IMG/VR virus record: IMGVR_UViG_2654588181_000006
Location: 1-19,222 of that record
Length of the DNA: 19,222 bases
From: a virus
Lineage: Duplodnaviria; Heunggongvirae; Uroviricota; Caudoviricetes
Direction: 5' to 3' (one strand)
Both the position numbers and the translations under genes were made by a program. This document shows positions 1,987 to 19,222 of the stretch, in pieces (within the stretch, counting starts at the first letter, position 1; the number at the start of each line of letters is the position of its first letter). Under the pieces are notes generated by a model, which had not been told where the DNA came from, did no database searches, and worked only from the letters and a program-made list of their open reading frames with translations.

Positions 1987-2024
1987 AAGTCACAAACAAC
2001 CACAGATAGCGCAGGTTATCACAC

Positions 2025-2303: not shown

Positions 2304-2317
2304 CGAGGTGTCATTTT

Positions 2318-2656: not shown

Positions 2657-2666
2657 CAGGTGCTTT

Positions 2667-2954: not shown

Positions 2955-2965
2955 AGGGCGTTGTG

Positions 2966-3342: not shown

Positions 3343-3410
3343 ATAAGAAAACGTGAAAACCATCCGTATTAACGGAGGTATTCGCACACGCAAATAACGG
3401 AGATACAAAA

Positions 3411-3821: not shown

Positions 3822-3844
3822 GGTTACTGGACAAAGGGGGCGCA

Positions 3845-4311: not shown

Positions 4312-4376
4312 GCACCATCAACCACCAGGAATTACATCCATCATCATTTCCGAGATGCCAACAGGCTCTTCACAGT

Positions 4377-4844: not shown

Positions 4845-5025
4845 AAACAACCTCCATTGTTAATAAACGCCGCTATCCTTCGGCGCATTCCATTTTTGCG
4901 CCGCGATTATACATACTTCAGCACGCAACACAAAAACCGCTTGCCAGCGCTCGTTGAGTCGGGTTACATTTCCGCTGCACCTCATAAAACGGGTGCCGGG
5001 ATTCTCAACCCGCTGACTACACACG

Positions 5026-5057
5026 CGCACAACCGCGCCAGCGGTTTTTTTGTGCGT
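5026..5057 (+). terminator. Terminator-like hairpin with U-tract
   Basis: ACCGC(5032-5036)-gcca-GCGGT(5041-5045) followed by seven T (5045-5051); flanking CGCACA (5026-5031) and TGTGCG (5052-5057) are also complementary. Short stem, so tentative. Confidence 0.3.
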
Positions 5058-5092
5058 ACTGTATTGCCACGTCTTATTCGCGTCAGAATTAT

Positions 5093-5168
5093 GGCGGGGC
5101 GTACGGGGCCGACTTCGGTCGGGCCGGGATCGTGTGTAGCCGGTGTTGAGAACCCCGTACGTCTCGCC
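5093..5168 (+). repeat. Inverted-repeat structured element with an inner C(UUCG)G hairpin
   Basis: GGCGGGGCGTACGGGG (5093-5108) pairs with CCCCGTACGTCTCGCC (5153-5168) at 14 of 16 positions, with a perfect 9-bp core. Inner hairpin CCGAC-TTCG-GTCGG at 5109-5122. The 10-mer GATTCTCAAC occurs at 5000-5009 and 5176-5185, and inverted (9 of 10) at 5145-5154. Confidence 0.35.
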
Positions 5169-5230
5169 ACCCCGAGATTCTCAACTCTGGATGGTGAGTT
5201 TTCAAAACTTACTATACACGAGGCCACGTC

Positions 5231-5461
5231 ATGGCAAACCGCAAGCAACAGCGCGCCCGCGCTGAGCGTATTCACATCCGCAGCGAAATCAACCGCAGAC
5301 TTTTTCGCGCAACACGCGTCGCGCAAATCATGCACATCAATATGTTGCATGAGCGCAGCCACGCACTATCAAACATTTATTCCGCCTCTGTTTTCAGCTA
5401 TCTGGCGGATGATCTGCACGAGCTTCAACAGCTCATCCAGCAGCAAAACAAACTCCATTAA
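5231..5461 (+). CDS. Hypothetical small basic protein (76 aa)
   Basis: ATG 5231 preceded by GAGG (5220-5223). N-terminus MANRKQQRARAERIHIRSEINRR is strongly basic. Lies immediately downstream of the structured region. Confidence 0.45.
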   Translation: MANRKQQRARAERIHIRSEINRRLFRATRVAQIMHINMLHERSHALSNIYSASVFSYLADDLHELQQLIQQQNKLH

Positions 5462-5533
5462 TTCCTGTTCCGGGCCTTTCCTGCACCTTGCGGCGGGAGG
5501 CCTTCGCACATCTGTAACAAGAGGATTGCCGCA

Positions 5534-5899
5534 ATGATTCTCGCCAACGACTTTCTTGAATACCTGCTCAACACAGAGCGTGATCTTGCCGCTCGCGTGC
5601 GTGATCGTTATGACATGTACCTGAAATCCCTGCCTGTACTGCAGCTCGCTGACGGAAAGATTGTTATTGATGGTCGCTACATGATTGACAGCCACGAGGG
5701 AAATTACAGGCTTTACCGCATTGAAGGTGGCACCCCGTCCGTTATTGGCATTTACCAGCGCCCATCCTCTGCAATCGTCGATGTGATTGCCGACAGCATC
5801 CGCATCACACATCGCCATGCCGACACAGAAGACACCGTGCTGGAAATTCAGCGGCTGGCTACAGTCTGCCGCGACACCCTGAATGGCATGACGAAGTAA
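5534..5899 (+). CDS. Hypothetical protein (121 aa) immediately upstream of gene A
   Basis: ATG 5534 preceded by AGAGGA; stop 7 nt before the gpA start. Confidence 0.6.
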   Translation: MILANDFLEYLLNTERDLAARVRDRYDMYLKSLPVLQLADGKIVIDGRYMIDSHEGNYRLYRIEGGTPSVIGIYQRPSSAIVDVIADSIRITHRHADTEDTVLEIQRLATVCRDTLNGMTK

Positions 5900-5905
5900 A
5901 TCACT

Positions 5906-8728
5906 ATGACGGCAGAGTACATCAGGGACTGGCAACAACCGCGCCACGCAGTGGGGCGTGAAGGAACGGGGATCCCCGCTCCTGAATCCGCGCTTTCCTC
6001 CTGGCTGGATGCCTACCGGGCTGAGAACGAGCGCCGCCAGGAAATGGCTGATGCGGCGTTCTCCGCCACACCGCTGGGCAACCTGATTAATAAAAGCCTG
6101 GACGCACAGGAAAAACAGGACAAAACCATCACACTGGCAGGAGACGCCAGAAAACAGGCACGCGGCGCGGTGGATGAAGCCATGGCCTCGCTGCGCCTGC
6201 TGCCGTCCTATCTGCGCGATCCGCTTATTCGCCACCTCTCCTTCCTGCGCAAAAAACAGGAAGCCGATCGCCGGAAAGGCAAAAAGAGCTGGCAGGCGGA
6301 ACGCTATGCACGCGGAACCCTGCGCAAAATATTCGAACGTCTGGATAGCACTGACGGACGCTGGCTGACACCGGGTTATCGCTCCCTTGCCGGACGCGAA
6401 CGCCTGGACGATTTGCTTTACCTGCCGCAGCTCAACAAACACCAGATACAGACGCTGGCCACCATGACGGCGGCGATGTTCAGCAGCACCTTCGAAAAAC
6501 TCTGCGATGGCTTTGGCGCGACCGATGGCGAGCTGACCATGGATGTAACCCTGAAGGCGTATCAGATGCTGGCCCGCATGGCGTTACACCTGCACGCCAT
6601 GCCTCCACATTATGACGCACTGACGACAGACAAAGACCGGAGGAACGAACCGGACACGGAGCTGCTGCCGGGCGCAATCCTTCGCCTGACCTGTGCGGAA
6701 TGGTGGAAACGCAAACTGTGGCTGTTACGTTGCGAGTGGAGAGAAGAACAACTCCGCGCCGCCTGTCTGGTTTCCAGAAAAACATCACCCTATCTGAGCC
6801 AGGACGCGTTAAGCGAGTTTCGCGCACAGCGCGAGAAAACACGCGATTTCCTGAAAAGTTTCATGCTGGAAAATGAAGACGGGTTCACGATTGATCTCGA
6901 GACAGTGTATTACGCGGGAGTAAGTAACCCGGTTCACCGTAAGGCAGAAATGATGGCCACCATGAAGGGGCTGGAACTTCTGGCCGAAGCCCGTGGCGAC
7001 AAAGCGGTGTTTCTGACTGTCACCTGCCCGTCAAAATACCACGCCACAACAGAGAACGGTCATCCGAATCCCAAATGGAACGGGGCCACCATGCGCGACT
7101 CCAGCGATTACCTGGTTAACACGTTTTTTGCAGCGGTCCGCAAGAAACTGAACCGCAACGGCCTGCGCTGGTATGGCATCCGCACGGTGGAGCCTCACCA
7201 TGACGGCACCGTGCACTGGCATATGATGGTCTTTGCTCATCCGGAAGAAATCGACACCATTGTGTCCCACACCCGCGATATTGCCATTCAGGAAGATCGT
7301 CACGAGCTGGGTGATGATATTACCCCACGCTTTAAGGCAGAGTACGTCGACGGTTCGAAAGGTACGCCGACCAGCTACATCGCCACCTACATCGGAAAGA
7401 ACCTGGACAGCCGCGCCGTGGGTGGCATTGACCCGAAAACAAGCAAGCCACGCGTTGATCACGAAACCGGAAAATCAATGGCCGAGAGCGTGGAACGCGC
7501 CATCGGCTGGGCGCGCCTTCACCGCGTCCGCCAGTTCCAGTTCTTTGGTATCCCCTCCCGTCAGGTATGGCGTGAACTCCGCCGCCTTGCCAGTCAGATG
7601 GCCCGCAACCCGGAAGGTCCACAACGTCTGGAAAATGACGCAATGGATGCGGTACTCGCTGCCGCTGATGCCGGGTGTTTTGCCACCTACATTGAGAAAC
7701 AGGGTGGCGTACTTGTTCCACGCAAGGATTACCTGATTCGCACCGCCTACGACCTCGCAGAAGAGCTGAACGATTACGGCGAGCAAAGCGTACAGATTTA
7801 CGGGATCTGGTCGCCACAAATCGGGGAATCTTCCCGCGTGTGCACGCACCCGGATAACTGGAAGCTGGTAAGACGTAAACCGGAAGCGGAAGACAGCGCC
7901 CGCGAAAATGGTTTTGACCTTCAGGGCGGCCCTGCCGCCCCTTGGACTCGTGGCAATAACTGTCCCCGTGTACAGGAAACGGACAACAACGGGACAGAAC
8001 AGCCGGAAGAACGGCCAGCACCGTGGCCGCAGCTCCCTGACGGCGTTGAAGTGAACGAATGGATGCGCTCACTGAAACGGCACGAACGCCGGGCGCTGAC
8101 GCGTTCGCTTCGTGACAAACAGGCAAAAAACAGCAGTGATGAAATGCAGAGCTGGACACAGAGCCGCAAACAGCAGCGGCCTTTGCCTGATAACCACGAA
8201 TTACTCGCTAAAGAATGGCGGGAGTCTGCTGAATCTCTCGGCCTGCATATCGGTGAACAACAGATGCAGCACCTGTTACGGGGCGGCAGTCTGTGCGTTG
8301 ACGGCAGCATCATTGCACCGCAGGGATTTGAAATTGTACGCAAACCGGATACCCGCCCGGACAGCCGAATCACGCAGCTCTGGCAGCGCCTGAGCCGTAA
8401 TCATGGCATAAGCAGCACGGAGATCCGCCATAACCCGGTCGCCAGCTATCTGGCACAGCTGGGGGCATCAGACCCTGAAGCCGCCGCACGCCTGGCATCC
8501 ACACTTCAGCAGGACCAGAACACCATGAAAACACCCGTTACCGTGCTTTCTGACATGCTGCGCGCCATCCGCGACGCAGAGCACGCACAGAGAATCAGTG
8601 AAACCACTGAACGCGCCAGCCGCAAAGCAGACCTGCTGCGGGGTAGCCTGACCAGTGGAAACAAAAAACAGACAGAAACGGGACTCACGAATCCCGTAAA
8701 TGAGCAAAAAACGCGCAGCGATATATGA
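5906..8728 (+). CDS. A: Rolling-circle replication initiation endonuclease (P2 gpA family)
   Basis: 940-aa ORF. HUH motif VHWHMMV at 7211-7231 and paired tyrosines in SYIATYIGKN (Y-x3-Y, 7376-7399) match the HUH relaxase/Rep catalytic arrangement of P2 A. Position after the cox-proximal early genes fits P2 synteny. Longer than the roughly 760 aa I recall for P2 A. Confidence 0.9.
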   Translation: MTAEYIRDWQQPRHAVGREGTGIPAPESALSSWLDAYRAENERRQEMADAAFSATPLGNLINKSLDAQEKQDKTITLAGDARKQARGAVDEAMASLRLLPSYLRDPLIRHLSFLRKKQEADRRKGKKSWQAERYARGTLRKIFERLDSTDGRWLTPGYRSLAGRERLDDLLYLPQLNKHQIQTLATMTAAMFSSTFEKLCDGFGATDGELTMDVTLKAYQMLARMALHLHAMPPHYDALTTDKDRRNEPDTELLPGAILRLTCAEWWKRKLWLLRCEWREEQLRAACLVSRKTSPYLSQDALSEFRAQREKTRDFLKSFMLENEDGFTIDLETVYYAGVSNPVHRKAEMMATMKGLELLAEARGDKAVFLTVTCPSKYHATTENGHPNPKWNGATMRDSSDYLVNTFFAAVRKKLNRNGLRWYGIRTVEPHHDGTVHWHMMVFAHPEEIDTIVSHTRDIAIQEDRHELGDDITPRFKAEYVDGSKGTPTSYIATYIGKNLDSRAVGGIDPKTSKPRVDHETGKSMAESVERAIGWARLHRVRQFQFFGIPSRQVWRELRRLASQMARNPEGPQRLENDAMDAVLAAADAGCFATYIEKQGGVLVPRKDYLIRTAYDLAEELNDYGEQSVQIYGIWSPQIGESSRVCTHPDNWKLVRRKPEAEDSARENGFDLQGGPAAPWTRGNNCPRVQETDNNGTEQPEERPAPWPQLPDGVEVNEWMRSLKRHERRALTRSLRDKQAKNSSDEMQSWTQSRKQQRPLPDNHELLAKEWRESAESLGLHIGEQQMQHLLRGGSLCVDGSIIAPQGFEIVRKPDTRPDSRITQLWQRLSRNHGISSTEIRHNPVASYLAQLGASDPEAAARLASTLQQDQNTMKTPVTVLSDMLRAIRDAEHAQRISETTERASRKADLLRGSLTSGNKKQTETGLTNPVNEQKTRSDI

Positions 8729-8773
8729 AGCGCGCACAAAACAGGCAAAAACGGGATTTCAGAATCCCGTAAA
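8665..8773 (+). repeat. Two 36-bp direct repeats, each with an internal hairpin
   Basis: aaaacagacagaaacgggactcacgaatcccgtaaa (8665-8700) versus aaaacaggcaaaaacgggatttcagaatcccgtaaa (8738-8773), 30 of 36 identical. Each contains the inverted repeat ACGGGA...TCCCGT; most mismatches fall in the loop. The first copy overlaps the 3' end of gene A, the second lies in the intergenic region upstream of the ParM-like gene. Confidence 0.5.
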
Positions 8774-8804
8774 CGATTAATTAATCAACATAAGGAAAAG
8801 CGAC

Positions 8805-9737
8805 ATGAAAATTTGTATCGACGACGGCTCCACCAACATCAAGCTGGCATGGACTGAGAACGGCGAACGCCGCAACGCCATCAGCCCGAACAGCTTCAAG
8901 TCGGAATGGTCTGCGCCGTTCGGCGGCACGCAGCCCGCGAACTACATGCTTGATGGCGTGCGCTATGGTTTTGATCCGGTCAGCGATCGCTTTGTCCAGA
9001 CGACCGACACGCAATACCAGTACAGCGATGTGAATGTCATTGCCATTCATCACGCGCTGGTCAAATCAGGCATCACGCCACAGGAGGTGGATGTGGTTGT
9101 CACCCTGCCACTGAGCGAGTATTTCGACACAAACGCACAGCCGGACATGGCCAACATCAACCGCAAAAAAGCGAACGTTATGCGCCCGGTGGAGTACCAG
9201 AACGGCGAAGCATTCACTATCCGTAACGTGCGGGTTATGCCTGAATCCATTCCGGCTGGCTTTAAGGCACTGGCTGACATGAGTCCGTTTGAATCCCTGC
9301 TGATTGTGGATTTGGGCGGAACCACGCTGGATGTGGCAAAGGTTCAGGGGCAACTGGCAGGTATCAGCCAGGTGTTTTGCGATCCACACGTAGGCGTTTC
9401 TCTGATGGCCGATGCCGTACTGTCGGTGATGGCCACTAACGGTATGCGCACCAGTCACCACATCGCCAATACCATTATCGAACATCGCCATGATGAAGCC
9501 TGGCTGCGCCAGCACATCCACAATGACGCGCATTACGCCAGCCTGATGGCGGTTATTCGTGAAAAGGAAGAAACACTGAAACAACGCGTGATCCGCGCGC
9601 TGGCGGGTTTTTCGGGTTACGGGAAGTTACAGGAACTGATGCCACTGGCGATCGTATGGCCTCCGCCACCGGGCGGGAGCTGGCCGCAACAACAGGGACC
9701 AGCGCCGGAGGCAGCGGAGCCGGGACCACGGGTGTGA
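8805..9737 (+). CDS. ParM/StbA-like actin-family ATPase, 3' end apparently truncated or replaced
   Basis: N-terminus MKICIDDGSTNIKLAW closely matches the ParM start (MLVFIDDGSTNIKLQW, from memory), with further blocks SPNSFK, QYSDVNV..HHAL, PESIPAGF, DLGGTT, IIEHRHD and LAGFSGYGK. After about residue 270 (near nt 9626) the reading frame turns proline-rich (LAIVWPPPPGGSWPQQQGPAPEAAEPGPRV) and overlaps the convergent tape-measure ORF, so the actin-fold C-terminus is probably missing. Confidence 0.65.
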   Translation: MKICIDDGSTNIKLAWTENGERRNAISPNSFKSEWSAPFGGTQPANYMLDGVRYGFDPVSDRFVQTTDTQYQYSDVNVIAIHHALVKSGITPQEVDVVVTLPLSEYFDTNAQPDMANINRKKANVMRPVEYQNGEAFTIRNVRVMPESIPAGFKALADMSPFESLLIVDLGGTTLDVAKVQGQLAGISQVFCDPHVGVSLMADAVLSVMATNGMRTSHHIANTIIEHRHDEAWLRQHIHNDAHYASLMAVIREKEETLKQRVIRALAGFSGYGKLQELMPLAIVWPPPPGGSWPQQQGPAPEAAEPGPRV

Positions 9738-12267
9738 TATTAATTGCGGGGGCAGGCTTACTGACCTGTGCAATCTTTCGCTCCTGCCACTCCCCACGAA
9801 CAGCAAGTGCGCGGGGCAGGTTCTTAAAGACAATATCGCCGGGGCCAATACGTTTTTTTGTCTCATCAACCAGCTTACCTGTGTTATCAGCAATTTTGCT
9901 GAGTCTGCGTAGCGTCCCGGTATTGCTGTCTGTGAGTGGTTTGTTGTCTTTGGGTTTATCACCCCCGGTGCCATTGCCATTTTCCACAGGCTTCGGCGGA
10001 TTGATTTTCGCCAGGTCCCCCTGAAGCAAGGCAACCTTGTCCTGAAGAATGGCCGCACGCTGTGCGTCTTCGATTTTCTTGCGCGCCCTTTCCGCTTCAT
10101 CCGGAAGGACGCCAAGTTTTTCAAGTATCCACGCCAGCGTATCCAGTAGCATTTTTGCAGGTGTCAGAACAAGCTGTAACGCACCGCCAAGAACGTTACC
10201 GAATATCTCGCCAGCACTGGTACATTTATCCAGCGTTTCCTTGCTGGACTCCATCGGTGACAGCAGCGATTTAAACCAGTTAAACACCTGACTGATCCCG
10301 CTTCCGATTGCGTCAAAAACAGGGCCAAACCGTTCAAAGGTTTCGCGCAACGGAGCCAGCCGTTCCATAATCCCGCTGAACACCCCGGCATAAAACGCCT
10401 TAATGGGTTCCCAGTATTTCCAGATGAGAACCGCCGCAGCCACAAACGCAGCAGCAATCAATCCGACCGGACTGAACAGCGCCCCGATAGCACCCCCCAG
10501 CAAAGAAACGGAACCCGTCACCATTCCCCATAGTGCTGGCAGGACCCTGACAGCATTCATTGATCCGGTCAGGAGAGAAAAACCAAGACGCAGTTTTGCC
10601 AGCGGGCCAGCAAGCACACCAATAGCCAGCGACAACGAGCCAACCGTTGCAGTCATTGCCAGCAACGCACCGCCTGCTATCAGTAGCTGGCGCGTCAGTA
10701 CCGGATGGGCCTGCGCCAGCGAGGTGATTTTTTCAAGCACCCGCGTGAGCCACTGCGTGACAGAACGCAGCGGACCGTCAACCAGATCACTGATGCGAAT
10801 ACGAAGACCTTCCCATGCGCTGTCGAGATTTTTCAGGTCCCCATCAAGATTATCGGCCATTACTTTTGCAACGCGATCGGCCTCTCCCCTTGCCCCCTGC
10901 AATTCTCTGGTCAGTTTTTGCAGCTCTCCTGAACCAGCCGCCGCAACAAGCGTCTGCAAACCAACGAACGCCTCTTCTCCGGCGATGTCCTTGAAGAAGG
11001 AAACCTGGTCCACCTGTCCGTATTTTTGTGTCGCCTTATAGAGATCAAGCAGCACATCCTCCATCGGGCGCATTTTGCCTCTGGCGTCAGCAACTGACAC
11101 TCCCAGCTCTTTCAGCGCATCAGCCGCAGCTTTTGGCGGTGATGCAAGGCGGGACAGACTTGCGCGCATGGCCGTACCAGCATCGCTTCCACGAAGGCCA
11201 TTATTGGCAAGCATCCCGGCCATGGCTGCCGCTTCTTCAAGACTGATACCAAGTTTTGCGGCAACCGGACCGGTATACTTCATGGTTTCGCCCAGCGCGC
11301 GTAAATCAGTATTGGTCCGGGTGAATGCCGCTGTCAGCGTATCGCCAACCCGGTCCATTTGATCGGCTGTCAGGTTGAACTGTGTGAGGATATTGGAGCC
11401 TATATCAGCCGTCTCGCCGAGTTCGACGCCACCTGCCAGCGCCATATTAAGAACACCGGGCAATGCGGCCTGAATGGCCTGCGGAGTAAAACCAGCCATT
11501 GCAAGAAATGCCTGTCCACTGGCGGCATCGCCTGCGGTGAACTGCGTTTCAGAGCCAAGTTTTAACGCCTGCTCACGCAGCGCCTTAAACTGCGGGCTGT
11601 TCTGGTCGATTCGCGTCAGTGCCTGAACGCGGGACATCTCTTTGCCGAACCCGATCGCAGGCTGCAAAAAACGCCCGGCAGCATAGCCGCCCGCCGCTGC
11701 CGCACCAATTGCCAGCGCACCACCTGTTTTCAGTTTTCCCGCTGTTTCCTGCGCGCGCGAATACCGCTCACGCGCCCGCGTTACACGCGCAAGCGCCTGC
11801 CGTTCGCGTTCAAGCTGGTTGTTGTACTGTTCGGTGCGTCTGATGGCCTGCTGGATGGTGTTATCGCTGCCTGTCAGGGAAATGCCGTGGCGTTTCAGCT
11901 CTCCGCCAAGTTCCCGCATTTTCTGAATTTCCCGTGTGCGCGATTCATTCAGGCGTTCAAGCCGGGTGCTTAACTGCTGCATCAGCTTTTGTTGTTTTTC
12001 GCTGAGCACTGTACCCGTGCGTTGTAACTGATTAAGGGCATTAAGCTGGCGTCGTGCTTTCAATATGCCAGCATCCGCTTTACTGACAGCGTCACGGGCG
12101 CGCTCAAATGAACGCGCCTGACGCTCGAGATTTTTGATCGCCCCCTGCGTTCGCTGGATGGAGTCACCAAACTGCCCCATCAGGCGGCAGGCGTTTTCGG
12201 CAGGCCGGGTCAGCCTGTCAACGGCGCTGAAAGCGACCCGGATATCAAGAGTCTTCATTATCTGCAT
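9553..12267 (-). CDS. T: Tail tape measure protein (P2 gpT-like)
   Basis: 904-aa ORF: N-terminal coiled-coil region, Gly/Ala-rich hydrophobic central segments, and position directly downstream of the E/E' chaperone pair with a 23-nt overlap. The last 70 or so residues are P/A/V-rich and read antisense into the ParM-like gene, so the native 3' end is uncertain. Confidence 0.85.
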   Translation of the reverse strand: MQIMKTLDIRVAFSAVDRLTRPAENACRLMGQFGDSIQRTQGAIKNLERQARSFERARDAVSKADAGILKARRQLNALNQLQRTGTVLSEKQQKLMQQLSTRLERLNESRTREIQKMRELGGELKRHGISLTGSDNTIQQAIRRTEQYNNQLERERQALARVTRARERYSRAQETAGKLKTGGALAIGAAAAGGYAAGRFLQPAIGFGKEMSRVQALTRIDQNSPQFKALREQALKLGSETQFTAGDAASGQAFLAMAGFTPQAIQAALPGVLNMALAGGVELGETADIGSNILTQFNLTADQMDRVGDTLTAAFTRTNTDLRALGETMKYTGPVAAKLGISLEEAAAMAGMLANNGLRGSDAGTAMRASLSRLASPPKAAADALKELGVSVADARGKMRPMEDVLLDLYKATQKYGQVDQVSFFKDIAGEEAFVGLQTLVAAAGSGELQKLTRELQGARGEADRVAKVMADNLDGDLKNLDSAWEGLRIRISDLVDGPLRSVTQWLTRVLEKITSLAQAHPVLTRQLLIAGGALLAMTATVGSLSLAIGVLAGPLAKLRLGFSLLTGSMNAVRVLPALWGMVTGSVSLLGGAIGALFSPVGLIAAAFVAAAVLIWKYWEPIKAFYAGVFSGIMERLAPLRETFERFGPVFDAIGSGISQVFNWFKSLLSPMESSKETLDKCTSAGEIFGNVLGGALQLVLTPAKMLLDTLAWILEKLGVLPDEAERARKKIEDAQRAAILQDKVALLQGDLAKINPPKPVENGNGTGGDKPKDNKPLTDSNTGTLRRLSKIADNTGKLVDETKKRIGPGDIVFKNLPRALAVRGEWQERKIAQVSKPAPAINITPVVPAPLPPALVPVVAASSRPVAEAIRSPVASVPVTSRNPKNPPARGSRVVSVFLPFHE

Positions 12268-12783
12268 TCCCGCTGCGAAGTGCCGCCCGCTCGCGCCAGC
12301 TAACCACTTCGCCGGGCGTCATCATGAAGATTTCGGCGGGCGACCAGTTAAAAATGGCGGCAATATCCGCCACCAGATCTTCGATGTGCTCAAAGCACAC
12401 CAGGGTGATTACGCTGCCGTCTCCTGCACGCTCTTCGCGCCAGAGTCTGGCTCGCTCATAAAATTTACAGCCACAGCGCACAACTGAATAAAATCGCGTG
12501 ACGACATTTTTTTAATCATCACTTCATCCAGTCGTGGCGAGGTCACGCGAGGCAACAGCGTAAACATGGTATCCGCTTTCAGATTCAGCACATCAGACAG
12601 CGACAGACCACGCAGGGATCCAGCCTGCTCAATAGCCCCGGTGATCTCCACATACGTGATTTTTTCGCCACCACGCTCAATTGGTCGGGTCAGTTTTACG
12701 CCACGTTCGACAGCCATATCCTCGCCTGCCGTCACATCATCCGCCACGGTGTTATTCCGGGTTTCAGTATCGATGTCTTTCAT
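12245..12783 (-). CDS. Tail assembly chaperone E+E' (programmed -1 frameshift product)
   Basis: An ORF in the -1 frame (12245..12481) overlaps the 3' part of E. That frame opens just after a run of seven A on the minus strand (plus 12507-12513), a plausible slippery site inside E codons ATT-AAA-AAA-ATG. The arrangement mirrors lambda G/GT and P2 E/E'. Confidence 0.6.
12409..12783 (-). CDS. E: Tail assembly chaperone gpE-like
   Basis: 124-aa ORF; ATG 12783..12781 preceded by AAGGAG with a 7-nt spacer. Located between FII and T and carries the overlapping E' frame. Confidence 0.7.
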   Translation of the reverse strand: MKDIDTETRNNTVADDVTAGEDMAVERGVKLTRPIERGGEKITYVEITGAIEQAGSLRGLSLSDVLNLKADTMFTLLPRVTSPRLDEVMIKKMSSRDFIQLCAVAVNFMSEPDSGAKSVQETAA

Positions 12784-12838
12784 CAGTTGTCTCCTTTTCA
12801 GTCAGAGGCGACGCACTGCGCCGCCTGCATATTACTTA

Positions 12839-13351
12839 TCAGCCAAGCCCAAGCGCGGAACGGATACGGTCAGGCACAATGTCCTTGCCGTCCTTCCGGT
12901 AGATGTGGTTCAACAGGTCGATTTCCCACAGCGGGCGATCGTTAACGCTCAGCTTGTAGTAGGTGTTTTTGACAGCGTAAGTGTGTGATGTGGCTTCGCC
13001 CTGTTTGGCTTCCCCCATATCAATTTCCGTCACACGCCCGCGCATCTCGATTTCATACAGATCACTTTCTGCATCGGTGTAGTATTCACCCGCAAAACGC
13101 AGCAACGTGCCGTCAATCGTGCCGCCATATTTAAGGAACAGCTCACGAACTGCGCCCCCCATGACAAAACTCGCATCAAGCGCAGAATCATCAAGACCGA
13201 GGTCGATACTCACCGCCCCCATCATGCCACCGCCACGATAGCTTTCAGTTTTGCGCGTCAGTTTAGGTGGAGTGACGGACGTCACCTTACCCACTTCGTT
13301 TTCACCATTCACAAACAGCGTAAAAAAGCGAAGATGTTTTGGTACAGCCAT
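12839..13351 (-). CDS. FII: Tail tube protein (P2 gpFII-like)
   Basis: 170-aa ORF. Segments TPPKLTRKTESYRGGGMMGAV and YYKLSVNDRPLWEIDLLN match the FII pattern I recall. Start overlaps the FI stop (TGATG). Confidence 0.85.
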   Translation of the reverse strand: MAVPKHLRFFTLFVNGENEVGKVTSVTPPKLTRKTESYRGGGMMGAVSIDLGLDDSALDASFVMGGAVRELFLKYGGTIDGTLLRFAGEYYTDAESDLYEIEMRGRVTEIDMGEAKQGEATSHTYAVKNTYYKLSVNDRPLWEIDLLNHIYRKDGKDIVPDRIRSALGLG

Positions 13352-14535
13352 CAGACACCTCCCAACACCGCAAATGCGGGATCAAAGTATTCATCAGTAA
13401 ACGTCTGGTAAAGCTCCATATCTTCCAGCGGAGGAACGGGCGTATATTTGTAGCGAATACGCACACGCCCCTGACGTAAATCCGTGGTGCTGTTATCCAC
13501 CACGTCATACCAGCACGACGCGCCAATCAGTTTCCCGGCAGTAACCAGTGAATCCAGTTTTGCCCTGATGGCACTGATAACATCCTTCACGTTCGCAGGC
13601 GTCAGTGGACTGTCGATGGTTTCAAACTGCGCTTCCGCAATTGAATCAGCCAGCACCTGTGCGGTTCGGGTATACACCTCAAAGATGTAGGCGTTCGTTT
13701 CCGGTGTGCGGTTGCCCCAGAAGCGGAACCCGTTGCGACGAATAATGGTCGTGATTTCTTTGTTGTTGAGGCTGTTGGCATCGCTGTCTTCGGCCTGCAA
13801 CGACCAGAACACATGCCTCGACATCCCCAGCACATTTTTAACCGGAACGTTGGACAGTGATTTATGCCAGCCCTGCTCATGGTCAATGTACGCACGAAGG
13901 CCGCACGCATAGGCAGGCGCGGGGAACGTTTCGTTTTTGCCACTTTTCGGGTTGTAGGCGATGAAGTCCGGCCATAAGAGCATCACCTCACGTTCGTTGA
14001 ATTTCTGGCGGTAGGTAATCGCCTCAGCCATCGTGTTACAGCCGTAACATGAGGCATACACAAACGCGCGCAGTTTACCTGCGATCACGCACAGGGATTT
14101 TGTTACAGCCTCCGTGTCCAGCTCCGGCGCGGCCAGAATACGCGGACGGTATCCGATGCTTTCATCCTGCTCTGCAACAAGCAGCGCAAACATCCCCGTA
14201 TAGCTGCCGTCATCCTCAGAACCACCGATAACCAGTTGATCCTGCGTCTTTCCGTCTTCTTCTTTGTGTTCAGCCACGCGAACGACGATCACCTTTGTGC
14301 TCACCTGGTCTGCAATGGCCTTAAGCGCACGATAAAGCGTCCCCGTTGTCCCGCATTTTCCCAGCACGTCATTGACGCGGGTCAGCAGTGTGGGCTTGTT
14401 CAGCGGGAACAGCTTCGCGTCCGCATCATCCGCCGTTGCCACGATACCGATAACGCTGGAATCAACATCGTTAATCGCTGTTACCAGGTCGGTATTTTCC
14501 GTAACACGGGCACCATGAAAACGAGTTTCACTCAT
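13351..14535 (-). CDS. FI: Contractile tail sheath protein (P2 gpFI-like)
   Basis: 394-aa ORF with conserved sheath blocks FPLNKP, KLRAFVYASCYGC, YRQKFNEREVMLLWPDF, IDHEQGWHKSLSNV, IRRNGFRFWGNRT, YTRTAQVLADSIAEA and YKYTPVPPLE. Confidence 0.9.
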   Translation of the reverse strand: MSETRFHGARVTENTDLVTAINDVDSSVIGIVATADDADAKLFPLNKPTLLTRVNDVLGKCGTTGTLYRALKAIADQVSTKVIVVRVAEHKEEDGKTQDQLVIGGSEDDGSYTGMFALLVAEQDESIGYRPRILAAPELDTEAVTKSLCVIAGKLRAFVYASCYGCNTMAEAITYRQKFNEREVMLLWPDFIAYNPKSGKNETFPAPAYACGLRAYIDHEQGWHKSLSNVPVKNVLGMSRHVFWSLQAEDSDANSLNNKEITTIIRRNGFRFWGNRTPETNAYIFEVYTRTAQVLADSIAEAQFETIDSPLTPANVKDVISAIRAKLDSLVTAGKLIGASCWYDVVDNSTTDLRQGRVRIRYKYTPVPPLEDMELYQTFTDEYFDPAFAVLGGV

Positions 14536-14692
14536 AGCTTCAGCCCCTTGTATCCGTTAAATGATTCGGCAACAATCATCACCCACCACGCGCGTAATCT
14601 CACCCCTGCGCCGTTCTCCCGACCCGGCGACAACAAAAAGCAGTAACCCCCTCCGCACGCACATGCGACCATGTCGCACAGGGAGGGAACAG

Positions 14693-15802
14693 ATGACCGA
14701 CACCACCATGCAATTGCTCAGTCAGGGCACAGACCCCGTGAAAATGCCGGATTTTGATATTCTCGCGGAGGGTAAAACGCTGTCAGGCGTGGCAGAGCGC
14801 CTGATGAGCCTGTCACTGACCGACAACCGGGGATTTGAGGCGGACCAGCTCGCCGTCACGCTGGATGATGCGGATGGTCAGTTGCAGCTACCGCCACGGG
14901 GCGCGCGCCTGACGGTTCTCATTGGCTGGAAAGGAGAACCGCTGACAGAAAAAGGCACTTACATTGTTGATGAAATCGCTCACGAAGGACCGCCGGACAG
15001 GCTGACTGTTTCAGCCAGAAGCGCAGATTTTCGGGATGAATTTAACGTTAAACGTGAGGTGTCCTGGCATGATGTGACCGTTGAACGCGTGGTATCCGCC
15101 ATCGCTCATCGGTACGGCCTGAAACCGCAAATCAGCGAAATGCTGATGGATATCGAAATCGACCACGCCGACCAGACTGAAGAAAGCGACATGTCCTTCC
15201 TTACGCGCATGGCGGAAATGCTGGGCGCAATCACCACGGTAAAAAGCGGTAATCTGTTATTCATCATGCCCGGTGGTGGCGTGAACGCACAGGGTCAGCC
15301 GTTGCCATCGTTTGCCATCACACGCAGCAGCGGCGATCGCCATCAGTTCCGCATTGCTGACCGCGAGGCGTATACGGGTGTACGCGCCTACTGGCTTGAT
15401 CTTAATTACGGGAAAAAGAAAAAAGTCAGCGTGAAACGCCGCAAACCGCCAAAACCCAAAAAGGAGAAAAGTAGCAGCCGTGAAGGTGATTATATGGAAG
15501 GCGCGGAAGGCAATGTGTTTGTGTTACGCAAGACTTATCAAAACGAGCAGGCAGCAAGACGCGCAGCGGCGGCAAAGTGGCAGCAGCTACAACGCGGAGC
15601 CGCAGCGTTCTCCATCACACTGGCACGTGGACGCGCAGAACTCTACCCCGAAATGCATGGCACGGTAACAGGATTTAAAAGCGAGATTGATAATCAGGAC
15701 TGGATTATTGCGAAAGCCGAGCACACCATTGATAACAGCGGCTTTACCACGCAGCTTGAGCTTGAAGCAAAAATCCCGGAGTGGATAGCAGAAACAGAGT
15801 AA
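14693..15802 (+). CDS. D: Tail protein D (phage late control gene D family)
   Basis: ORF 14561..15802; start chosen at ATG 14693 preceded by GGGAGGGA (14681-14688). Blocks LTDNRGFEADQL, GWKGEPL, ARSADFR, SWHD, DQTEESDMSFL, YTGVRAYW, LARGRAELYPE and GFTTQLELE fit the gpD family. It is on the opposite strand from FI-FII-E-T, unlike canonical P2. Confidence 0.8.
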   Translation: MTDTTMQLLSQGTDPVKMPDFDILAEGKTLSGVAERLMSLSLTDNRGFEADQLAVTLDDADGQLQLPPRGARLTVLIGWKGEPLTEKGTYIVDEIAHEGPPDRLTVSARSADFRDEFNVKREVSWHDVTVERVVSAIAHRYGLKPQISEMLMDIEIDHADQTEESDMSFLTRMAEMLGAITTVKSGNLLFIMPGGGVNAQGQPLPSFAITRSSGDRHQFRIADREAYTGVRAYWLDLNYGKKKKVSVKRRKPPKPKKEKSSSREGDYMEGAEGNVFVLRKTYQNEQAARRAAAAKWQQLQRGAAAFSITLARGRAELYPEMHGTVTGFKSEIDNQDWIIAKAEHTIDNSGFTTQLELEAKIPEWIAETE

Positions 15803-15890
15803 ACAACTTAAATGTATAAGCTAAGATATTAGCTGGAACGCTTGCTGCACAGAGGCAGCCCCAATTTGACAATCACTTCTATGACAGAAG

Positions 15891-15913
15891 CGCTACCTTA
15901 TTATAAGGTAGCG
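15891..15913. repeat. 23-bp perfect palindrome
   Basis: CGCTACCTTAT-T-ATAAGGTAGCG is perfectly self-complementary around a central T. It sits 89 bp downstream of the D stop, at the edge of the AT-rich island. Confidence 0.5.
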
Positions 15914-16054
15914 TAGATTGAGCAATCTATATCGTGCTAAAAACACATGTTGAATATTTAGATATCGATGTGATATTAACGTTATATCAAGAGAGTTAAT
16001 GTTCTACCGAACCTTATTATCAGAGTTTATTATAGATAAACAATTACTATCAAT

Positions 16055-16113
16055 AAGAGCCACGCACGCAATATTTTGAGGCTGTGGCTCTTATCTGTGA
16101 ACCTACGAGGTTC
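16055..16113 (-). terminator. Tandem stem-loops immediately downstream of the ATPase gene
   Basis: GAACC-tacga-GGTTC at 16099-16113 starts 2 nt after the ATPase stop; AAGAGCCAC (16055-16063) pairs with GTGGCTCTT (16084-16092). No clean U-tract, so terminator function is tentative. Confidence 0.35.
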
Positions 16114-16114
16114 G

Positions 16115-18253
16115 TCAGGCAATCTCGCGACCAACATCGTCATTTGCCGCAAAAGCTGATAGTAACAAATTATCACACTCAGTTATGACATATTCTGGAA
16201 TGAGATCGAATCTAGCCGGATCCAGCTGGCAGATAAACTCATTTTCGATATGATAGGTTTCATTAATAAATTTCTGAATTACAGAGTTTGTATGCTCAAT
16301 ACCCATTAACCTGAAAACTTGCAATTTTTCGTAGCTACTTTTGCAACTGAAATAAAGCGTGGTGAGAAAGTTTTCGCAGGTGATTTTTGCTAGCTCTACC
16401 TTATAGTTGAAATCTGGAATATGATTAATTATTTCGTGACAACCTAAATTTTCACTAACTTCTGACATTAACGAATATTCCCCGTCGATCTTCGCCAAGC
16501 GCCTATCCTCCAGAAATTCCCGCTTATGAAAAAGATTTGAAAGCACTTGATAGGCATCCCCCAGATCATCAAGGATTTCGTAATGACGGCGAAGATATAT
16601 CAACTTAATAATATCGTCACTCACAGACTGTAGAGCCGATGTGCAGATTTGAGCAAAAGTTTTGATATCCGAATTTGAAATTGGTTGCTCTGTAATAACA
16701 CCATTACTGTAGCGGAGATAAGCTGCTGAAACTTGATTATCAAATTGCTGCCTAACAGCGCGAATAGTATCGATGATTGGCTCAACATCATGCGTCAACA
16801 TCAGCACTGTTTTACTCTTAAGACAATCAGATGGCTCTCTACGAAAAAGCATTTCAAGAATCGCAAACTTCTTATTTTTATCGAACGAGGAAATGGGATC
16901 ATCCAAAATAATCAGACTTGGTTTTCTAGAAAGACATTCATACATGAAGAGCACGAGGGCAAACGCATTTCTTTCACCGTAACTTAGATGTTGGCTACCA
17001 CCAGTGACGACATCTGTATGATCTACATGATAGAGTTGTAGTCGTGGCTGTGCATCGTCTGTTATCCGCACACGGTAACGATAACCAGCATAGGATAGAA
17101 AATCATTGATATTTTTTTGGTGCTTTATAACGAGCTGGCGTACTTTATTCCGCTGCTGATTCAGTTTACCCTGAAGTGGTCCAGCGCTTGCAATTAGATC
17201 AGTCAGAGAAGTATTGAGTGCATCAACAATACGTGTGGTTTCTTCTGATTGAAGTTCAGTAAAGAAGTCCAGATTCAACTTGTAAGAGGCGAGTTTAGCA
17301 GCTACATCGTCTCCTTCTGTGAAGCTAAATCCGGAAAGCGTTTTAAGCACGGTAAGTTTATCTATTAGATCATCTGTTTGAGATTTAAGGGTGATAAGAT
17401 ATGTTTCATGCTGCTGCTCAAGACCATTAGGAAGGGTTGTGATTTCTTTAAGACGATCACGGGCAGAGTCAGTAAGGTAAATTCCTAAACGCTGAATGAC
17501 ATCAACAAGCTCCATCAAATTTTTGATGACAGCTTGGTCATATTCTACTCCAACCTGTTGAATTCGTTGTTGTTGTTGTTCGGTAGATTCACTACTGCAA
17601 TAAGGACAGTACTCACCCGCAAGTTCACCAAACTCTGTTAGCCCTTTTGTCTGCCAAGCAATCCACTGCACACTTTTATTACTAGTTATCATGTTTCTGT
17701 ACGGTTCAAGTGCGGCAGGGATATGAAGAAGTTTATTACCTCCAGCAAGCGCTTTCATACCCTTTGTACTTTTACTAAGAGCAGATGCTGCAGTGACTTT
17801 AAATGCACTGGATAAAACAGTGAGATCGCTCAATAGGGTTTCCAGTTGTGTATGCTCGGTAAACACCTGACGGATCGTCGAAATAATTAATTCTATTTCA
17901 CTCTCTGTTCTGATATACGCGTCAGTTTTGATTAATATATCGAAACTGTTGGCTACAAGCTCATCCTGACGGAATGTGAACTGGCTAACATACTCCTCAT
18001 TGAAACACATTATATTATCTAGTTGTTCCATTCCGGTCACAGAGGGCGCAACATTATCGGGGTTATTTGCCCTGAATTTAAAAGGAAGTAATTCTGCCAA
18101 ACAAGCTTCCTGCCCAGGCAAACTGAACTGCATCGCCCGAGCAATAGTGCTTTTCCCTGTACCATTCGGCGCAAAACGAATATTCAACTTTTTTTCGGCT
18201 AGAGAAACAGTAGCAAAGTCAATGCTATTACAGTAACTAATTTCAATTTCCAT
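16115..18253 (-). CDS. ABC/Rad50-type ATPase with CxxC zinc hook and C-terminal putative nuclease domain (RloC/PrrC-like architecture); candidate anti-phage defence protein
   Basis: 712-aa ORF; ATG 18253..18251 preceded by AAGAAGG with a 7-nt spacer. Walker A APNGTGKST (18146-18172); about 380 aa of predicted coiled coil containing EYCPYCSS (CxxC, 17597-17608); signature-like LSYGERN (16967-16987); Walker B LIILDD (16898-16915); H-loop LTHD; then a roughly 225-aa C-terminal domain with a candidate Rx5H motif RLMGIEH (16292-16312). The gene is visibly AT-rich and opposite in orientation to the flanking D and ogr. Confidence 0.8.
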   Translation of the reverse strand: MEIEISYCNSIDFATVSLAEKKLNIRFAPNGTGKSTIARAMQFSLPGQEACLAELLPFKFRANNPDNVAPSVTGMEQLDNIMCFNEEYVSQFTFRQDELVANSFDILIKTDAYIRTESEIELIISTIRQVFTEHTQLETLLSDLTVLSSAFKVTAASALSKSTKGMKALAGGNKLLHIPAALEPYRNMITSNKSVQWIAWQTKGLTEFGELAGEYCPYCSSESTEQQQQRIQQVGVEYDQAVIKNLMELVDVIQRLGIYLTDSARDRLKEITTLPNGLEQQHETYLITLKSQTDDLIDKLTVLKTLSGFSFTEGDDVAAKLASYKLNLDFFTELQSEETTRIVDALNTSLTDLIASAGPLQGKLNQQRNKVRQLVIKHQKNINDFLSYAGYRYRVRITDDAQPRLQLYHVDHTDVVTGGSQHLSYGERNAFALVLFMYECLSRKPSLIILDDPISSFDKNKKFAILEMLFRREPSDCLKSKTVLMLTHDVEPIIDTIRAVRQQFDNQVSAAYLRYSNGVITEQPISNSDIKTFAQICTSALQSVSDDIIKLIYLRRHYEILDDLGDAYQVLSNLFHKREFLEDRRLAKIDGEYSLMSEVSENLGCHEIINHIPDFNYKVELAKITCENFLTTLYFSCKSSYEKLQVFRLMGIEHTNSVIQKFINETYHIENEFICQLDPARFDLIPEYVITECDNLLLSAFAANDDVGREIA

Positions 18254-18425
18254 TTTTTTGCCTTCTTATTACGTTAGTAAGGCAATCACAATACCAACAA
18301 TTCATTAATAAGTTTACTGCTGGATTCAAAACAAACCAACTTGTGTCACAATATTTAAATTCTATACAGCTTTTCCGTTTCTCCCCCCTTATGAATGAGG
18401 GTTCTATTGCAAGCCTTTCGAGCAT
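18243..18425 (-). CDS. Possible small Cys-rich upstream ORF (60 aa) overlapping the ATPase start
   Basis: The ORF ends 11 nt inside the ATPase gene (stop complement of 18243-18245). Contains several Cys (CWYCDC). RBS weak (AGGAA, 10-nt spacer). Could be a leader peptide or spurious. Confidence 0.25.
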   Translation of the reverse strand: MLERLAIEPSFIRGEKRKSCIEFKYCDTSWFVLNPAVNLLMNCWYCDCLTNVIRRQKNGN

Positions 18426-18501
18426 AAAGCATCAGTTCCTAGTACATATCGTGGCTTTTCTTACAATTGAGCGCATGGCCTGTTTTTCCATTTATTTGTA
18501 T

Positions 18502-18531
18502 GTGACATAAGCAAAATCACTTTTTTATAGT
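18502..18531 (+). promoter_or_regulatory. Candidate sigma70 promoter for ogr
   Basis: GTGACA (18502-18507), 18-bp spacer, TATAGT (18526-18531), about 100 bp upstream of the ogr ATG. Confidence 0.3.
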
Positions 18532-18630
18532 AAAAATGTACATCCTCCTCTCGACAAAAGCTGTCTGGCAGTTGGAGCTTGAGTCAAGACAACTTAAAAT
18601 AGCGACAGCACCACGTTAAGGGAGGTCGCT

Positions 18631-18891
18631 ATGTTCCGTTGTCCGCTTTGTGGCGCATCTGCCCGTATCCGCACAAGTCGCCCTGAAAATGATTCGAATA
18701 CCGTGCGGCAAAAATATTACCAGTGTAACAACCTGGAATGCGGCGTATGCTTCTCAACACTGGAAGCCTTCCATAAATTCACATCGAAACACGCCTCCAG
18801 CGCTCACTCTTCGGAGAGTATCCCTTGGCATGATCTGCCAGCTTCACACAGAGGAAACAATCAGATGAGTTTGCCCTTACCTCAGAATTAA
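18631..18891 (+). CDS. ogr: Ogr/Delta-type zinc-finger late transcription activator
   Basis: N-terminus MFRCPLCGASARIRTSR...YYQCNNLECGV has the C-x2-C-x(24)-C-x4-C spacing and resembles P2 Ogr (MFHCPLCQHAAHARTSR...YHQCQNVNC, from memory). ATG 18631 preceded by AAGGGAGG. Confidence 0.8.
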   Translation: MFRCPLCGASARIRTSRPENDSNTVRQKYYQCNNLECGVCFSTLEAFHKFTSKHASSAHSSESIPWHDLPASHRGNNQMSLPLPQN

Positions 18892-18951: not shown

Positions 18952-19215
18952 ATGGTCGGAGGGAATACCCGAAGGCCAGATGTGGAAAGGCCCCGGAAAA
19001 CATCTCTGTTTAACCGAGGCCCTAACCGCATTACCTTGACAAGTGAAAGGTTAGCGCCTCTCCGGAAAAGGAGCAAGTGCTATGTCGCAAAAATCGCTTA
19101 CGGCCATCACGTTCTGCGTGACGGCAATCCTCATCATCTGGATGTTGCACGGTTCGCTGTGCGAAATACGGATGAGCTTCTGGGGAGCGGAGTTTGCGGC
19201 GTTCTTACAGTGTAA
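18952..19215 (+). CDS. mok-like overlapping reading frame
   Basis: An 87-codon frame starts about 130 nt upstream of the hok-like gene and ends 7 nt before its stop, in a different frame. This mirrors the mok/hok overlap of hok/sok loci. Its true start is not determined. Confidence 0.35.
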   Translation: MVGGNTRRPDVERPRKTSLFNRGPNRITLTSERLAPLRKRSKCYVAKIAYGHHVLRDGNPHHLDVARFAVRNTDELLGSGVCGVLTV

Positions 19216-19222
19216 GCAGTAA
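19082..19222 (+). CDS. hok: Hok/Gef-family type I toxin (46 aa)
   Basis: Not in the ORF track (under 60 aa). ATG 19082 preceded by AAGGAG. Translation MSQKSLTAITFCVTAILIIWMLHGSLCEIRMSFWGAEFAAFLQCKQ has one TM helix followed by SLCEIR and E-x-AAF-x-x-C, as in Hok (KSLCEIR, EVAAFMA) and HokA (SLCELH, ELAAFLACK), recalled from memory. Stop at 19220-19222 is the last codon of the window. Confidence 0.75.
   Translation: MSQKSLTAITFCVTAILIIWMLHGSLCEIRMSFWGAEFAAFLQCKQ

Follow-up and report, generated by a model that had tools for sequence, protein, structure and literature searches.

A candidate single-gene defence cassette in a P88-like prophage: an ABC ATPase with a zinc-hook motif and an orphan C-terminal module

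The stretch of DNA studied here, IMG/VR virus record IMGVR_UViG_2654588181_000006, has a full length of 19,222 nt and is referred to as the window; all coordinates are given on window numbering. Between the tail gene D and the late activator gene ogr of a P2/P88-like prophage, it contains an AT-rich island of 2.78 kb with one gene, which lies on the strand opposite to both flanking genes. This gene encodes a 712-amino-acid (aa) ATP-binding cassette (ABC) ATPase, whose head is split by a helical insert with a Rad50-type zinc-hook motif and is followed by a conserved C-terminal module. We propose that the product may act on its own in abortive infection, as a protein of the RloC/PrrC type in which the ABC ATPase would gate a C-terminal RNase, and we put the probability of this reading at roughly 45%.

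A mobile one-gene cassette of the PDC-S06 family

In phage P88, genes D and ogr are almost adjacent, without an insert. The match of the window to the P88 backbone breaks at position 15813 and resumes at 18591, which defines the insertion as 15814-18590. To its left lies tail gene D, a late control D/VgrG-like gene (14561..15802, plus strand), which was identified as an open reading frame (ORF) and from the annotations of Escherichia coli strain 1303 and phage P88. To its right lies the gene of the ogr/Delta zinc-finger late activator (18631..18891, plus strand), identified as an ORF, from annotation and from the Pfam family Ogr_Delta in locus L149. The windowed guanine-plus-cytosine (GC) content is 0.37-0.41 over ~15750-18750 and 0.52-0.58 in the adjacent phage genes, with means of 0.39 for the island and 0.55 for the backbone. 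A previous reading, made from the letters alone (hereafter the sequence-only reading), had described an AT-rich 2.8-kb stretch at 15803-18630, very close to these borders, and a 712-aa gene in it opposite to D and ogr. This gene is the ORF at 16115..18253 on the minus strand; it starts with ATG, and its product is identical to WP_000402003.1, annotated as “AAA family ATPase” in RefSeq.

The DNA shared with relatives of the gene is not limited to its coding sequence (CDS). A blastn comparison with locus L093 showed 84.8% identity along window positions 18479..15882, comprising the CDS together with ~226 nt upstream and ~233 nt downstream; the matches to loci L096 and L098 are shorter. Because the DNA that these relatives have in common, in unrelated contexts, consists of the CDS and both flanks, we consider 15882..18479 (minus strand) to be a mobile one-gene cassette with its own regulatory DNA. 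The clean insertion with respect to P88, the GC content of 0.39 and the recovery of the same cassette from unrelated mobile contexts (78-85% nucleotide identity) together identify the island as a horizontally acquired, foreign one-gene cassette in a P2/P88-like prophage, in agreement with the acquisition that the sequence-only reading had proposed.

Profile hidden Markov model searches, which had been suggested as a check, assigned the protein to the PADLOC candidate system PDC-S06, which had thus been catalogued computationally before. Model PDLC04889 of this system matches residues 1-698 along profile positions 1-688 of 693 (E = 2.1e-277, 920 bits), and also matches the C-terminal 223 residues on their own (E = 1.4e-75). 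PDC-S06 lumps about a dozen AAA_13 subfamilies with differing C-terminal domains, and its other models match only the ATPase part of the protein. The Pfam family AAA_13, which is the PrrC/RloC family, was detected with 64.3 bits (cut-off 36), and this alignment extends only to profile position 572, the H-loop. NCBIfam returned generic ABC matches only, the matching PHROG family (2801) is of unknown function, and weak matches were obtained to the PADLOC models of LmuB (2.8e-13, partial) and AriA. The candidacy of the gene as a defence gene, already put forward in the sequence-only reading, is strengthened by the full-length match to PDC-S06, by the company that the family keeps elsewhere (see below) and by the polymorphic nature of the D-ogr gap.

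The family is large and unusually well conserved: it comprises more than 3,800 clusters in the databases (55-59% full-length identity across Proteobacteria, Chlorobi, Cyanobacteria and other groups) and was found in at least 475 species-level genomes. When the C-terminal domain alone served as query of an exhaustive search, 408 cluster representatives were recovered; among the 150 of these that were listed, 83 are proteins of 630-860 aa with the domain at ~500-700, and the shorter matches resemble gene fragments. The architecture of the family is fixed. Among 5,426 complete E. coli genomes, strain 1303 alone has DNA nearly identical to the window gene; the exact protein is also encoded in one draft assembly, in the same order ihfA-hok-ogr-gene-D. 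Diverged copies (~53% aa identity) are more widespread: 780 of 72,556 plasmids, for the most part conjugative plasmids of enterobacteria, have full-length copies, and matches are present in ~800 of the 5,426 complete E. coli genomes (~15%), some of them only fragments.

ATPase head, zinc hook and C-terminal module

Conservation was counted in 120 close homologs and, separately, in a deeper set of 84 sequences reaching down to ~30% identity. All motifs named in the sequence-only reading (Walker A, CxxC, signature, Walker B, H-loop and the candidate Rx5H string) are present as letters, and most of them are conserved. The Walker A motif or P-loop, APNGTGKST (residues 28-36; 18146..18172, on the minus strand as are all the protein features below), contains N30, G31, G33 and K34, which are invariant in the 120 homologs. 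The same holds for Q421, L423, S424, G426 and E427 of the ABC signature Q421-H-L-S-Y-G-E427 (16973..16993). Walker B (LIILDD) and the D-loop (PISSFD) occupy residues 447-458 (16880..16915), where L450, D451, D452, P453, I454, S455, S456, F457 and D458 are invariant. In the H-loop, L-T-H488-D (16787..16798), at which the AAA_13 match stops, T487 and H488 are invariant. The PDB structures nearest to a full-length AlphaFold2 model (mean predicted local distance difference test score, pLDDT, 81.6) are the heads of SMC, Rad50, SbcC, RecN and Lamassu LmuB. Judged by its motifs and by this model, the ATPase is predicted to be catalytically intact and to have a fold of the Rad50/SMC class.

According to the secondary structure of the model, the ABC head is split by a helical insert of ~280 aa (residues ~105-390; 17084..17941). 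This insert carries the Rad50-type zinc-hook motif C216-P-Y-C219 (17597..17608) on a short hairpin (residues 213-224) with helices 194-212 and 225-237 on either side, and each of the three residues C216, P217 and C219 is conserved in 82 of the 84 deep-set sequences. The sequence-only reading had envisaged a long coiled coil with the CxxC at its centre. The conserved motif on a helical insert was borne out; in the model, though, the insert consists of many helices, and the hairpin is off-centre, with ~110 aa on its N-terminal and ~170 aa on its C-terminal side. Since each chain contributes only two cysteines, zinc binding would need two protomers, which implies dimerisation.

The remainder of the protein is a family-specific, mostly alpha-helical C-terminal module, which we consider a candidate effector. 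A domain of ~225 aa had been proposed for this part. A conserved module is indeed present, but strands at 508-524 indicate that residues 490-527 still form part of the ABC head, and the module proper spans ~175 aa (~528-702; 16148..16672). It is conserved to the same degree as the ATPase, and its invariant residues are polar: R555, R648, K661, H668 and N671. Two motifs stand out, R555-R-H-Y-E559 (motif 1; 16577..16591) and K661-F-I-N664-E-T-Y-H668-I-E670-N671-E (motif 2; 16238..16273). In the deep set, R555 and H668 are found in 84 of the 84 sequences, R648 in 83, K661 and N671 in 82, K643 in 81, E670 in 77, R556 in 76 and N664 in 68, and position 559 is Glu in 77 and Asp in another six.

The heptapeptide RLMGIEH (residues 648-654; 16292..16312), which the sequence-only reading had singled out as a candidate Rx5H motif, does not constitute a motif and is a chance string. 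Although R648 is also invariant in the close set, E653 and H654 are located in a lineage-specific indel loop: position 654 is Val in 56, Ala in 29 and Ile in 14 of the close homologs (99/120), and residues 652-655 fall in a gap in 72-76 of the 84 deep-set sequences. The H654A mutant that had been suggested would therefore be uninformative. We propose R555, E559, K661, N664 and H668 as candidate catalytic residues instead of the misleading R648/H654 pair.

The C-terminal module had been thought the part of the protein most likely to be novel, and the searches agree with this. No significant Pfam or NCBIfam family and no match among PDB sequences was found for it, a profile search of PDB sequences with the domain gave only noise, and a Foldseek search of the C-terminal model against the PDB gave zero matches. 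When 32 divergent C-terminal domains were scanned against Pfam at E <= 10, only singleton noise was obtained, with no recurring family. At the level of sequence, the domain is thus an orphan.

Relation to PrrC and RloC, possible mechanism and alternatives

To survey the genes that accompany the family, the ORFs adjacent to it in 80 loci from many phyla were clustered without the use of annotation. The neighbour families reach at most 10 of these 80 loci, and we therefore conclude that there is no obligate partner gene and that the gene stands by itself, as the sequence-only reading had assumed. The most frequent neighbours are HsdR (10), HsdM (10) and HsdS (9), followed by SbcD (6), SbcC (6), Schlafen/AlbA_2 (6) and Fic/DOC (4). 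Linkage to type I restriction-modification (R-M) genes was found in 12 of the 80 loci and is always co-oriented, in the order hsdM-hsdS-gene-(SLFN)-hsdR or hsdR-hsdM-hsdS-gene; we put the share of loci with the gene in a type I R-M operon, in the manner of prrC, at about 15-20%. R-M and Fic/DOC neighbourhoods have been listed for PrrC/RloC-type ABC-HEPN genes by Anantharaman et al. (PMC3710099). Among the closest relatives (84-89% identity), one is located in an AlpA/PRTase island, a second in an island adjacent to ssrA/SmpB that contains a Pox_D5 primase, and a third, from Enterobacter, in a cluster together with Mrr, Abi_2 and OLD-like genes. A ~53%-identical copy on the E. coli plasmid p2_0.1 (L010) lies beside an anti-phage system with cyclic-oligonucleotide-based signalling (CBASS; SMODS and S-4TM), HsdR, VapBC and DUF3800, a neighbourhood that, by its gene content, is a plasmid defence islet.

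Two recurrent arrangements were observed in these loci. In L019, L036, L038 and L041, the family gene is part of an operon with the order hsdM-hsdS-(77-aa protein MAKGKNQHVVKHPDGWAVKG...)-family gene-Schlafen/AlbA_2-HATPase_c_4 protein-hsdR-YgjP metallopeptidase, whose composition suggests a defence operon of several layers with type I R-M at its core. The small ORF “u93” located 5' of the gene in R-M-embedded loci was considered as a general partner and rejected, as it is present in only five closely related operons. In L002 (Legionella), L014, L015, L018 and L027 (Desulfocapsa, Deltaproteobacteria and Nitrospirae are among the five), the gene is located directly upstream of, and co-oriented with, sbcD-sbcC, and a type I hsdR often precedes the family gene in such loci. 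The position of a Rad50-like hook ATPase next to the SbcCD of the cell suggests functional coupling.

The ATPase part resembles PrrC in being of the AAA_13 type, in the Asp-Asp ending of its Walker B motif and in the position of its H-loop, 36 residues downstream (35 in PrrC); Asp215, Asp216 and His251 are essential residues of PrrC (PMC3025547). A subset of the family loci also has the order hsdM-hsdS-gene-hsdR, as prrC does in the EcoprrI locus. The essential nuclease residues of PrrC, shared with RloC, are arranged as R320-N321-x2-E324 and R349-x2-N352-x3-H356 (PMC3025547), within the sequences R320-N-L-Y-E324 and R349-I-I-N352-F-T-S-H356. The internal spacing of R555-x3-E559 and K661-x2-N664-x3-H668 is identical to that of these PrrC motifs, with Lys in place of Arg. 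Using a back-translated EcoPrrC peptide, we recovered genuine PrrC genes from metagenomes. These read LLRNLYE and RIINFTSH where the family studied here reads YLRRHYE and KFINETYH, so that LRRxYE is comparable to LRNLYE and KFINETYH to RIINFTSH. An hhalign comparison of the motif-1 segment aligned R555 and E559 with the Arg and Glu of PrrC (P = 0.013). Sliding the PrrC motif profiles over the domain placed the R555 site first of 170 for motif 1 and the K661 site first of 169 for motif 2 (shuffle-based P = 0.011 and 0.019, respectively). An hhalign alignment of the full-length family with PrrC is unreliable past Walker A, both profiles being shallow. A PrrC-like active site in the C-terminal module is suggested by these comparisons but not established.

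The protein is nevertheless distinct from PrrC. PrrC, the tRNA-Lys anticodon nuclease of the EcoprrI type Ic R-M locus, has ~390 aa (340-420) and an uninterrupted ABC domain, in contrast to the 712 aa and the ~280-aa insert found here. The PADLOC PrrC model PDLC02360, which detects genuine PrrC with E = 3.7e-147, does not match the protein even at E <= 1, and genuine PrrC gives weak matches to PDC-S06 models other than that of this family. PrrC is always located in a type I R-M locus, whereas the window contains no hsd genes and only a minority of the family loci are embedded in this way. From its sequence features, the protein is neither PrrC nor a canonical RloC (see below), and the orthology with RloC or PrrC that the sequence-only reading had considered did not hold up, although the RloC-like order of domains that it recognised did.

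If the RloC/PrrC-type reading is correct, the switch would be the Rad50/SMC-class AAA_13 ABC head with its PrrC-like Asp-Asp Walker B. The helical insert that splits this head would carry at its tip the invariant CPxC zinc hook, shared by two protomers. By analogy with RloC and PrrC, the cue on infection would arise at the level of DNA: free ends, damaged DNA, or a type I restriction enzyme that is lost or inhibited. Binding or hydrolysis of ATP would then release the C-terminal helical module. We infer that this module would cut RNA in a metal-independent manner, probably in tRNA anticodon loops, with catalysis by His668 together with Lys661/Asn664 and Arg555/Glu559. Translation would halt and the infection would abort. 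In this scheme, the defence activity, its trigger, the nuclease activity and the RNA target are all inferred.

Several observations weigh against this proposal. The C-terminal domain lacks a significant match in Pfam, NCBIfam and PDB sequences, as described above. Its two motifs are ~100 residues apart, compared to 25 in PrrC and 36-52 in RloC. A whole-domain hhalign comparison with the nuclease domain of PrrC was not significant (0.5% probability), and when all ungapped windows were compared with each other, similar scores were also obtained at non-equivalent positions. The HEPN pattern Rx4-6H with a polar residue after the Arg does not occur among the conserved positions: the conserved candidate for it is K661-F-x5-H668, in which Lys replaces Arg and is followed by Phe instead of a polar residue. 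At the level of the family, we found no experimental study in the literature, and the papers that name PDC-S06 merely list the system. Finally, a search of 50,697 deposited phage genomes yielded no homolog, even though a PHROG family matches.

It is possible, though less likely than not, that the C-terminal module is a new effector domain, either a new RNase fold of unrelated origin or a strongly remodelled, insert-expanded HEPN domain whose site is Lys-x2-Asn-x3-His, and that this very widespread family forms a third branch of hook- and ABC-ATPase-gated ribonuclease defence beside PrrC and RloC. In that case, the family might guard type I restriction enzymes or SbcCD, beside which it has repeatedly inserted. 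ABC ATPases of the APECO1_4465 type, which are frequent in prophages and have a C-terminal HEPN domain, have been tabled together with PrrC and RloC, in one entry that gives R-M and Fic/DOC as neighbourhoods of the three families (PMC3710099). We liken them to the family studied here by description only; if APECO1_4465 does belong to this same family, the HEPN assignment would gain independent published support and the novelty of the module would be reduced.

The strongest competitor of the RloC/PrrC-type reading, with perhaps one chance in five by our estimate, is that the C-terminal module is not a nuclease but a sensor or adaptor for a partner such as SbcCD, a phage protein or a subunit of type I R-M; through its SMC/Rad50-like ATPase, the protein would then act on DNA, by clamping it or by recruiting host nucleases. 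The absence of a significant nuclease fold or family match would be explained in this way. The fold of the ATPase head is that of Rad50, SbcC and SMC proteins, the CPxC hook is as in Rad50 and SbcC, and the similarity to the LmuB head is accompanied by the weak LmuB and AriA model matches. The sbcD and sbcC families occur in 6 of the 80 loci, being directly downstream of the gene in the five mentioned above, and type I R-M is repeatedly adjacent. Yet most loci have neither R-M nor SbcCD genes nearby, and the cassette moves alone. The insert of ~280 aa is far shorter than the coiled coils of DNA-entrapping SMC proteins. Moreover, the module is as conserved as the ATPase, whereas sensor domains of defence proteins usually vary quickly, and its invariant Arg, Lys, His, Asn and Glu residues are typical of the site of a metal-independent RNase.

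Somewhat less probable still is that the protein is a true RloC orthologue, i.e., a wobble-nucleotide-excising anticodon nuclease that has diverged in sequence. RloC, as in Geobacillus kaustophilus and Acinetobacter baylyi, is a Rad50-like zinc-hook ABC ATPase to which an anticodon nuclease is fused, and changes to its hook de-repress the nuclease. It has been defined by the triad Arg-X3-Glu-X36-52-His and a size of 658-897 aa, with 8 of 73 genes linked to R-M (PMC2610378), and it is with this published description that we compare the protein. The likeness is considerable: an AAA_13-type ABC head split by a CxxC-bearing helical insert and followed by a C-terminal module, a size of 712 aa, a stand-alone, laterally mobile gene, a similarly rare R-M linkage (12/80 vs 8/73, ~10-15% of loci) and the presence of R-x3-E. 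In addition, a 56%-identical member is entered as “wobble nucleotide-excising tRNase” in a Joint Genome Institute record. The triad spacing of RloC is not found, however. Counted from E559, H576 is at +16 (59/84) and the invariant H668 at +108, and there is no conserved His at 36-52. The His motif opens with Lys instead of Arg, and the module is larger (~175 aa) and orphan in sequence. The AAA_13 profile, which in genuine PrrC covers positions 493-688 including the nuclease motifs, ends at position 572 here and leaves the C-terminal domain uncovered. PADLOC, finally, has a separate model for this subfamily, the other PDC-S06 models matching the ATPase alone.

We regard it as improbable that the gene is primarily an addiction or stabilisation module, a latent toxin that penalises loss of or damage to a plasmid or prophage. 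Its distribution would fit this role: of 837 genomic places counted in E. coli, 741 belong to large plasmids, which are mostly conjugative, 625 of 911 plasmids are conjugative, one copy adjoins vapBC, and the gene has been kept in a seemingly deleted, defective prophage in the window. Against it, there is no cognate antitoxin or partner gene, and the neighbours are mostly bona fide anti-phage systems, the association on which the PADLOC candidate call is based; addiction and anti-phage roles are, besides, not mutually exclusive. Strongly disfavoured is a housekeeping role in DNA repair, the gene being that of an SbcC/RecN/RecF-type ATPase that lies in the prophage by chance: although the full-model fold search returns SbcC, Rad50, RecN and RecF heads and NCBIfam gives generic ABC matches, the distribution is patchy (near-identical DNA in a single complete E. 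coli genome and one draft assembly), the gene lies in an AT-rich insertion that moves between mobile elements, and both the conserved extra C-terminal module and the Asp-Asp, rather than Asp-Glu, Walker B are foreign to repair ATPases. The insert is also much shorter than the coiled coils of Rad50/SbcC, neither Mre11 nor SbcD is encoded in the window, and an adjacent sbcDC is a feature of only ~6 of the 80 loci. Neither LmuA nor any other Lamassu partner is present in the window or conserved in the family.

If the RloC/PrrC-type model is true, it would provide a mechanism, a DNA-sensing zinc-hook ATPase gating an RNase, for one of the commonest unvalidated candidate defence genes of Enterobacteria. 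It would also extend the small PrrC/RloC class by a third branch and offer a tractable single-gene model of Rad50-like signalling from hook to effector. With the gene repeatedly inserted within type I R-M operons and next to sbcDC, the old idea that anticodon nucleases are a backup of restriction becomes directly testable in a new family.

The D-ogr gap, the regulatory DNA of the cassette and the prophage

The D-ogr junction was found in 1,202 genomes and is empty in about two-thirds of an evenly spaced sample of them. Filled gaps in other E. coli contain PIN-domain, GmrSD, ComF, YecA-family, DUF3800 or hypothetical genes (L008, L009; H98-H149). As the gap is either empty or occupied by alternative cargos, we consider it a variable single-gene cargo site of P88-like prophages. 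It differs from the cos-proximal P2 hotspot of Rousset et al. (PMC9122126) and is consistent with the extra P2 hotspots mentioned in a 2026 preprint. For annotation purposes, the present analysis puts this role of the D-ogr gap on record and corrects the candidate catalytic residues of the protein.

The ATPase gene is preceded by a Shine-Dalgarno sequence, AAGAAGG (18261..18267, minus strand), located 7 nt before the ATG, and its A-rich AAGG block is kept in L093, L096 and L098. The ribosome-binding site that the sequence-only reading had called strong is therefore present, but it is reasonable rather than exceptional. The alignment with the same three loci also revealed a conserved non-coding leader (18254..18479, minus strand), which is likely to be the promoter region and in which the block TTGTGACACAAG..GGTTTGTTTTGA is conserved; a promoter consensus scan yielded nothing convincing for a promoter of the ATPase gene itself. 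An ORF of 60 aa in this region (18243..18425), which overlaps the start of the ATPase gene, was considered as a gene, hidden partner or antitoxin and was discarded: a 14-nt indel breaks it in the 85%-identical cassette, it is missing from L096, and no neighbour ORF or other sequence is similar to it.

Downstream of the gene and inside the cassette, a hairpin with an 11-bp stem (ATAAGAGCCAC ... GTGGCTCTTAT; 16053..16094, minus strand) begins 21 nt past the stop codon. It is a candidate terminator, although a consensus terminator scan gave no call there. A perfect 23-nt palindrome, CGCTACCTTATTATAAGGTAGCG, is present at ~15893-15915, in the interval that separates gene D from the ATPase gene and just within the mobile cassette. 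Its possible roles are those of a terminator acting in both directions, a recombination site or an operator.

The left half of the window (1-9740) corresponds to the early region of a prophage, with an integrase gene (596-1720, minus strand), a repressor gene (1620-1964, minus strand), regulators, a gpA-type nickase gene (5906-8728, plus strand) and a ParM-like partition gene (8805-9737, plus strand). The 3' end of the tape-measure gene (9553-12267, minus strand) directly abuts this early region, and the resulting junction (~9553-9740) was found in no complete E. coli genome. Identity of the whole window with the prophage of strain 1303 was ruled out, because the two are colinear only from position 9615 on. 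The int and ogr genes are only ~18 kb apart, and the element has no head, lysis, baseplate or fibre genes. We are dealing either with a defective prophage that underwent deletion and retained the cassette or with a contig joined in assembly.

The tail genes T, E, FII and FI (9553-14535, minus strand) are oriented opposite to D and ogr, unlike in classical P2. The same arrangement with respect to D is seen in strain 1303, and phage P88 (Xuanwuvirus) has an identical sheath(-)/D(+) junction; since strain 1303 and P88 have this arrangement in common, the backbone is P88-like and not P2 in the strict sense.

In the early region, strong Rfam matches were obtained for isrK (4977-5051, plus strand; 61.8 bits) and the C4 antisense RNA (5087-5174, plus strand; 76.8 bits). 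Both fall within a mechanically called ORF of 371 aa (4422-5537), whose PHROG matches are “transcriptional regulator”. The isrK/C4 region resembles a c4-type antisense immunity element of the P1/P7 style, and the 371-aa ORF may be over-called. At the other end of the window, directly after ogr, a Hok/Gef-family toxin gene (19082-19222, plus strand) runs past the window end. This gene lies at the border between prophage and chromosome, beside ihfA, and is kept in strain 1303, phage P88 and other lysogens.

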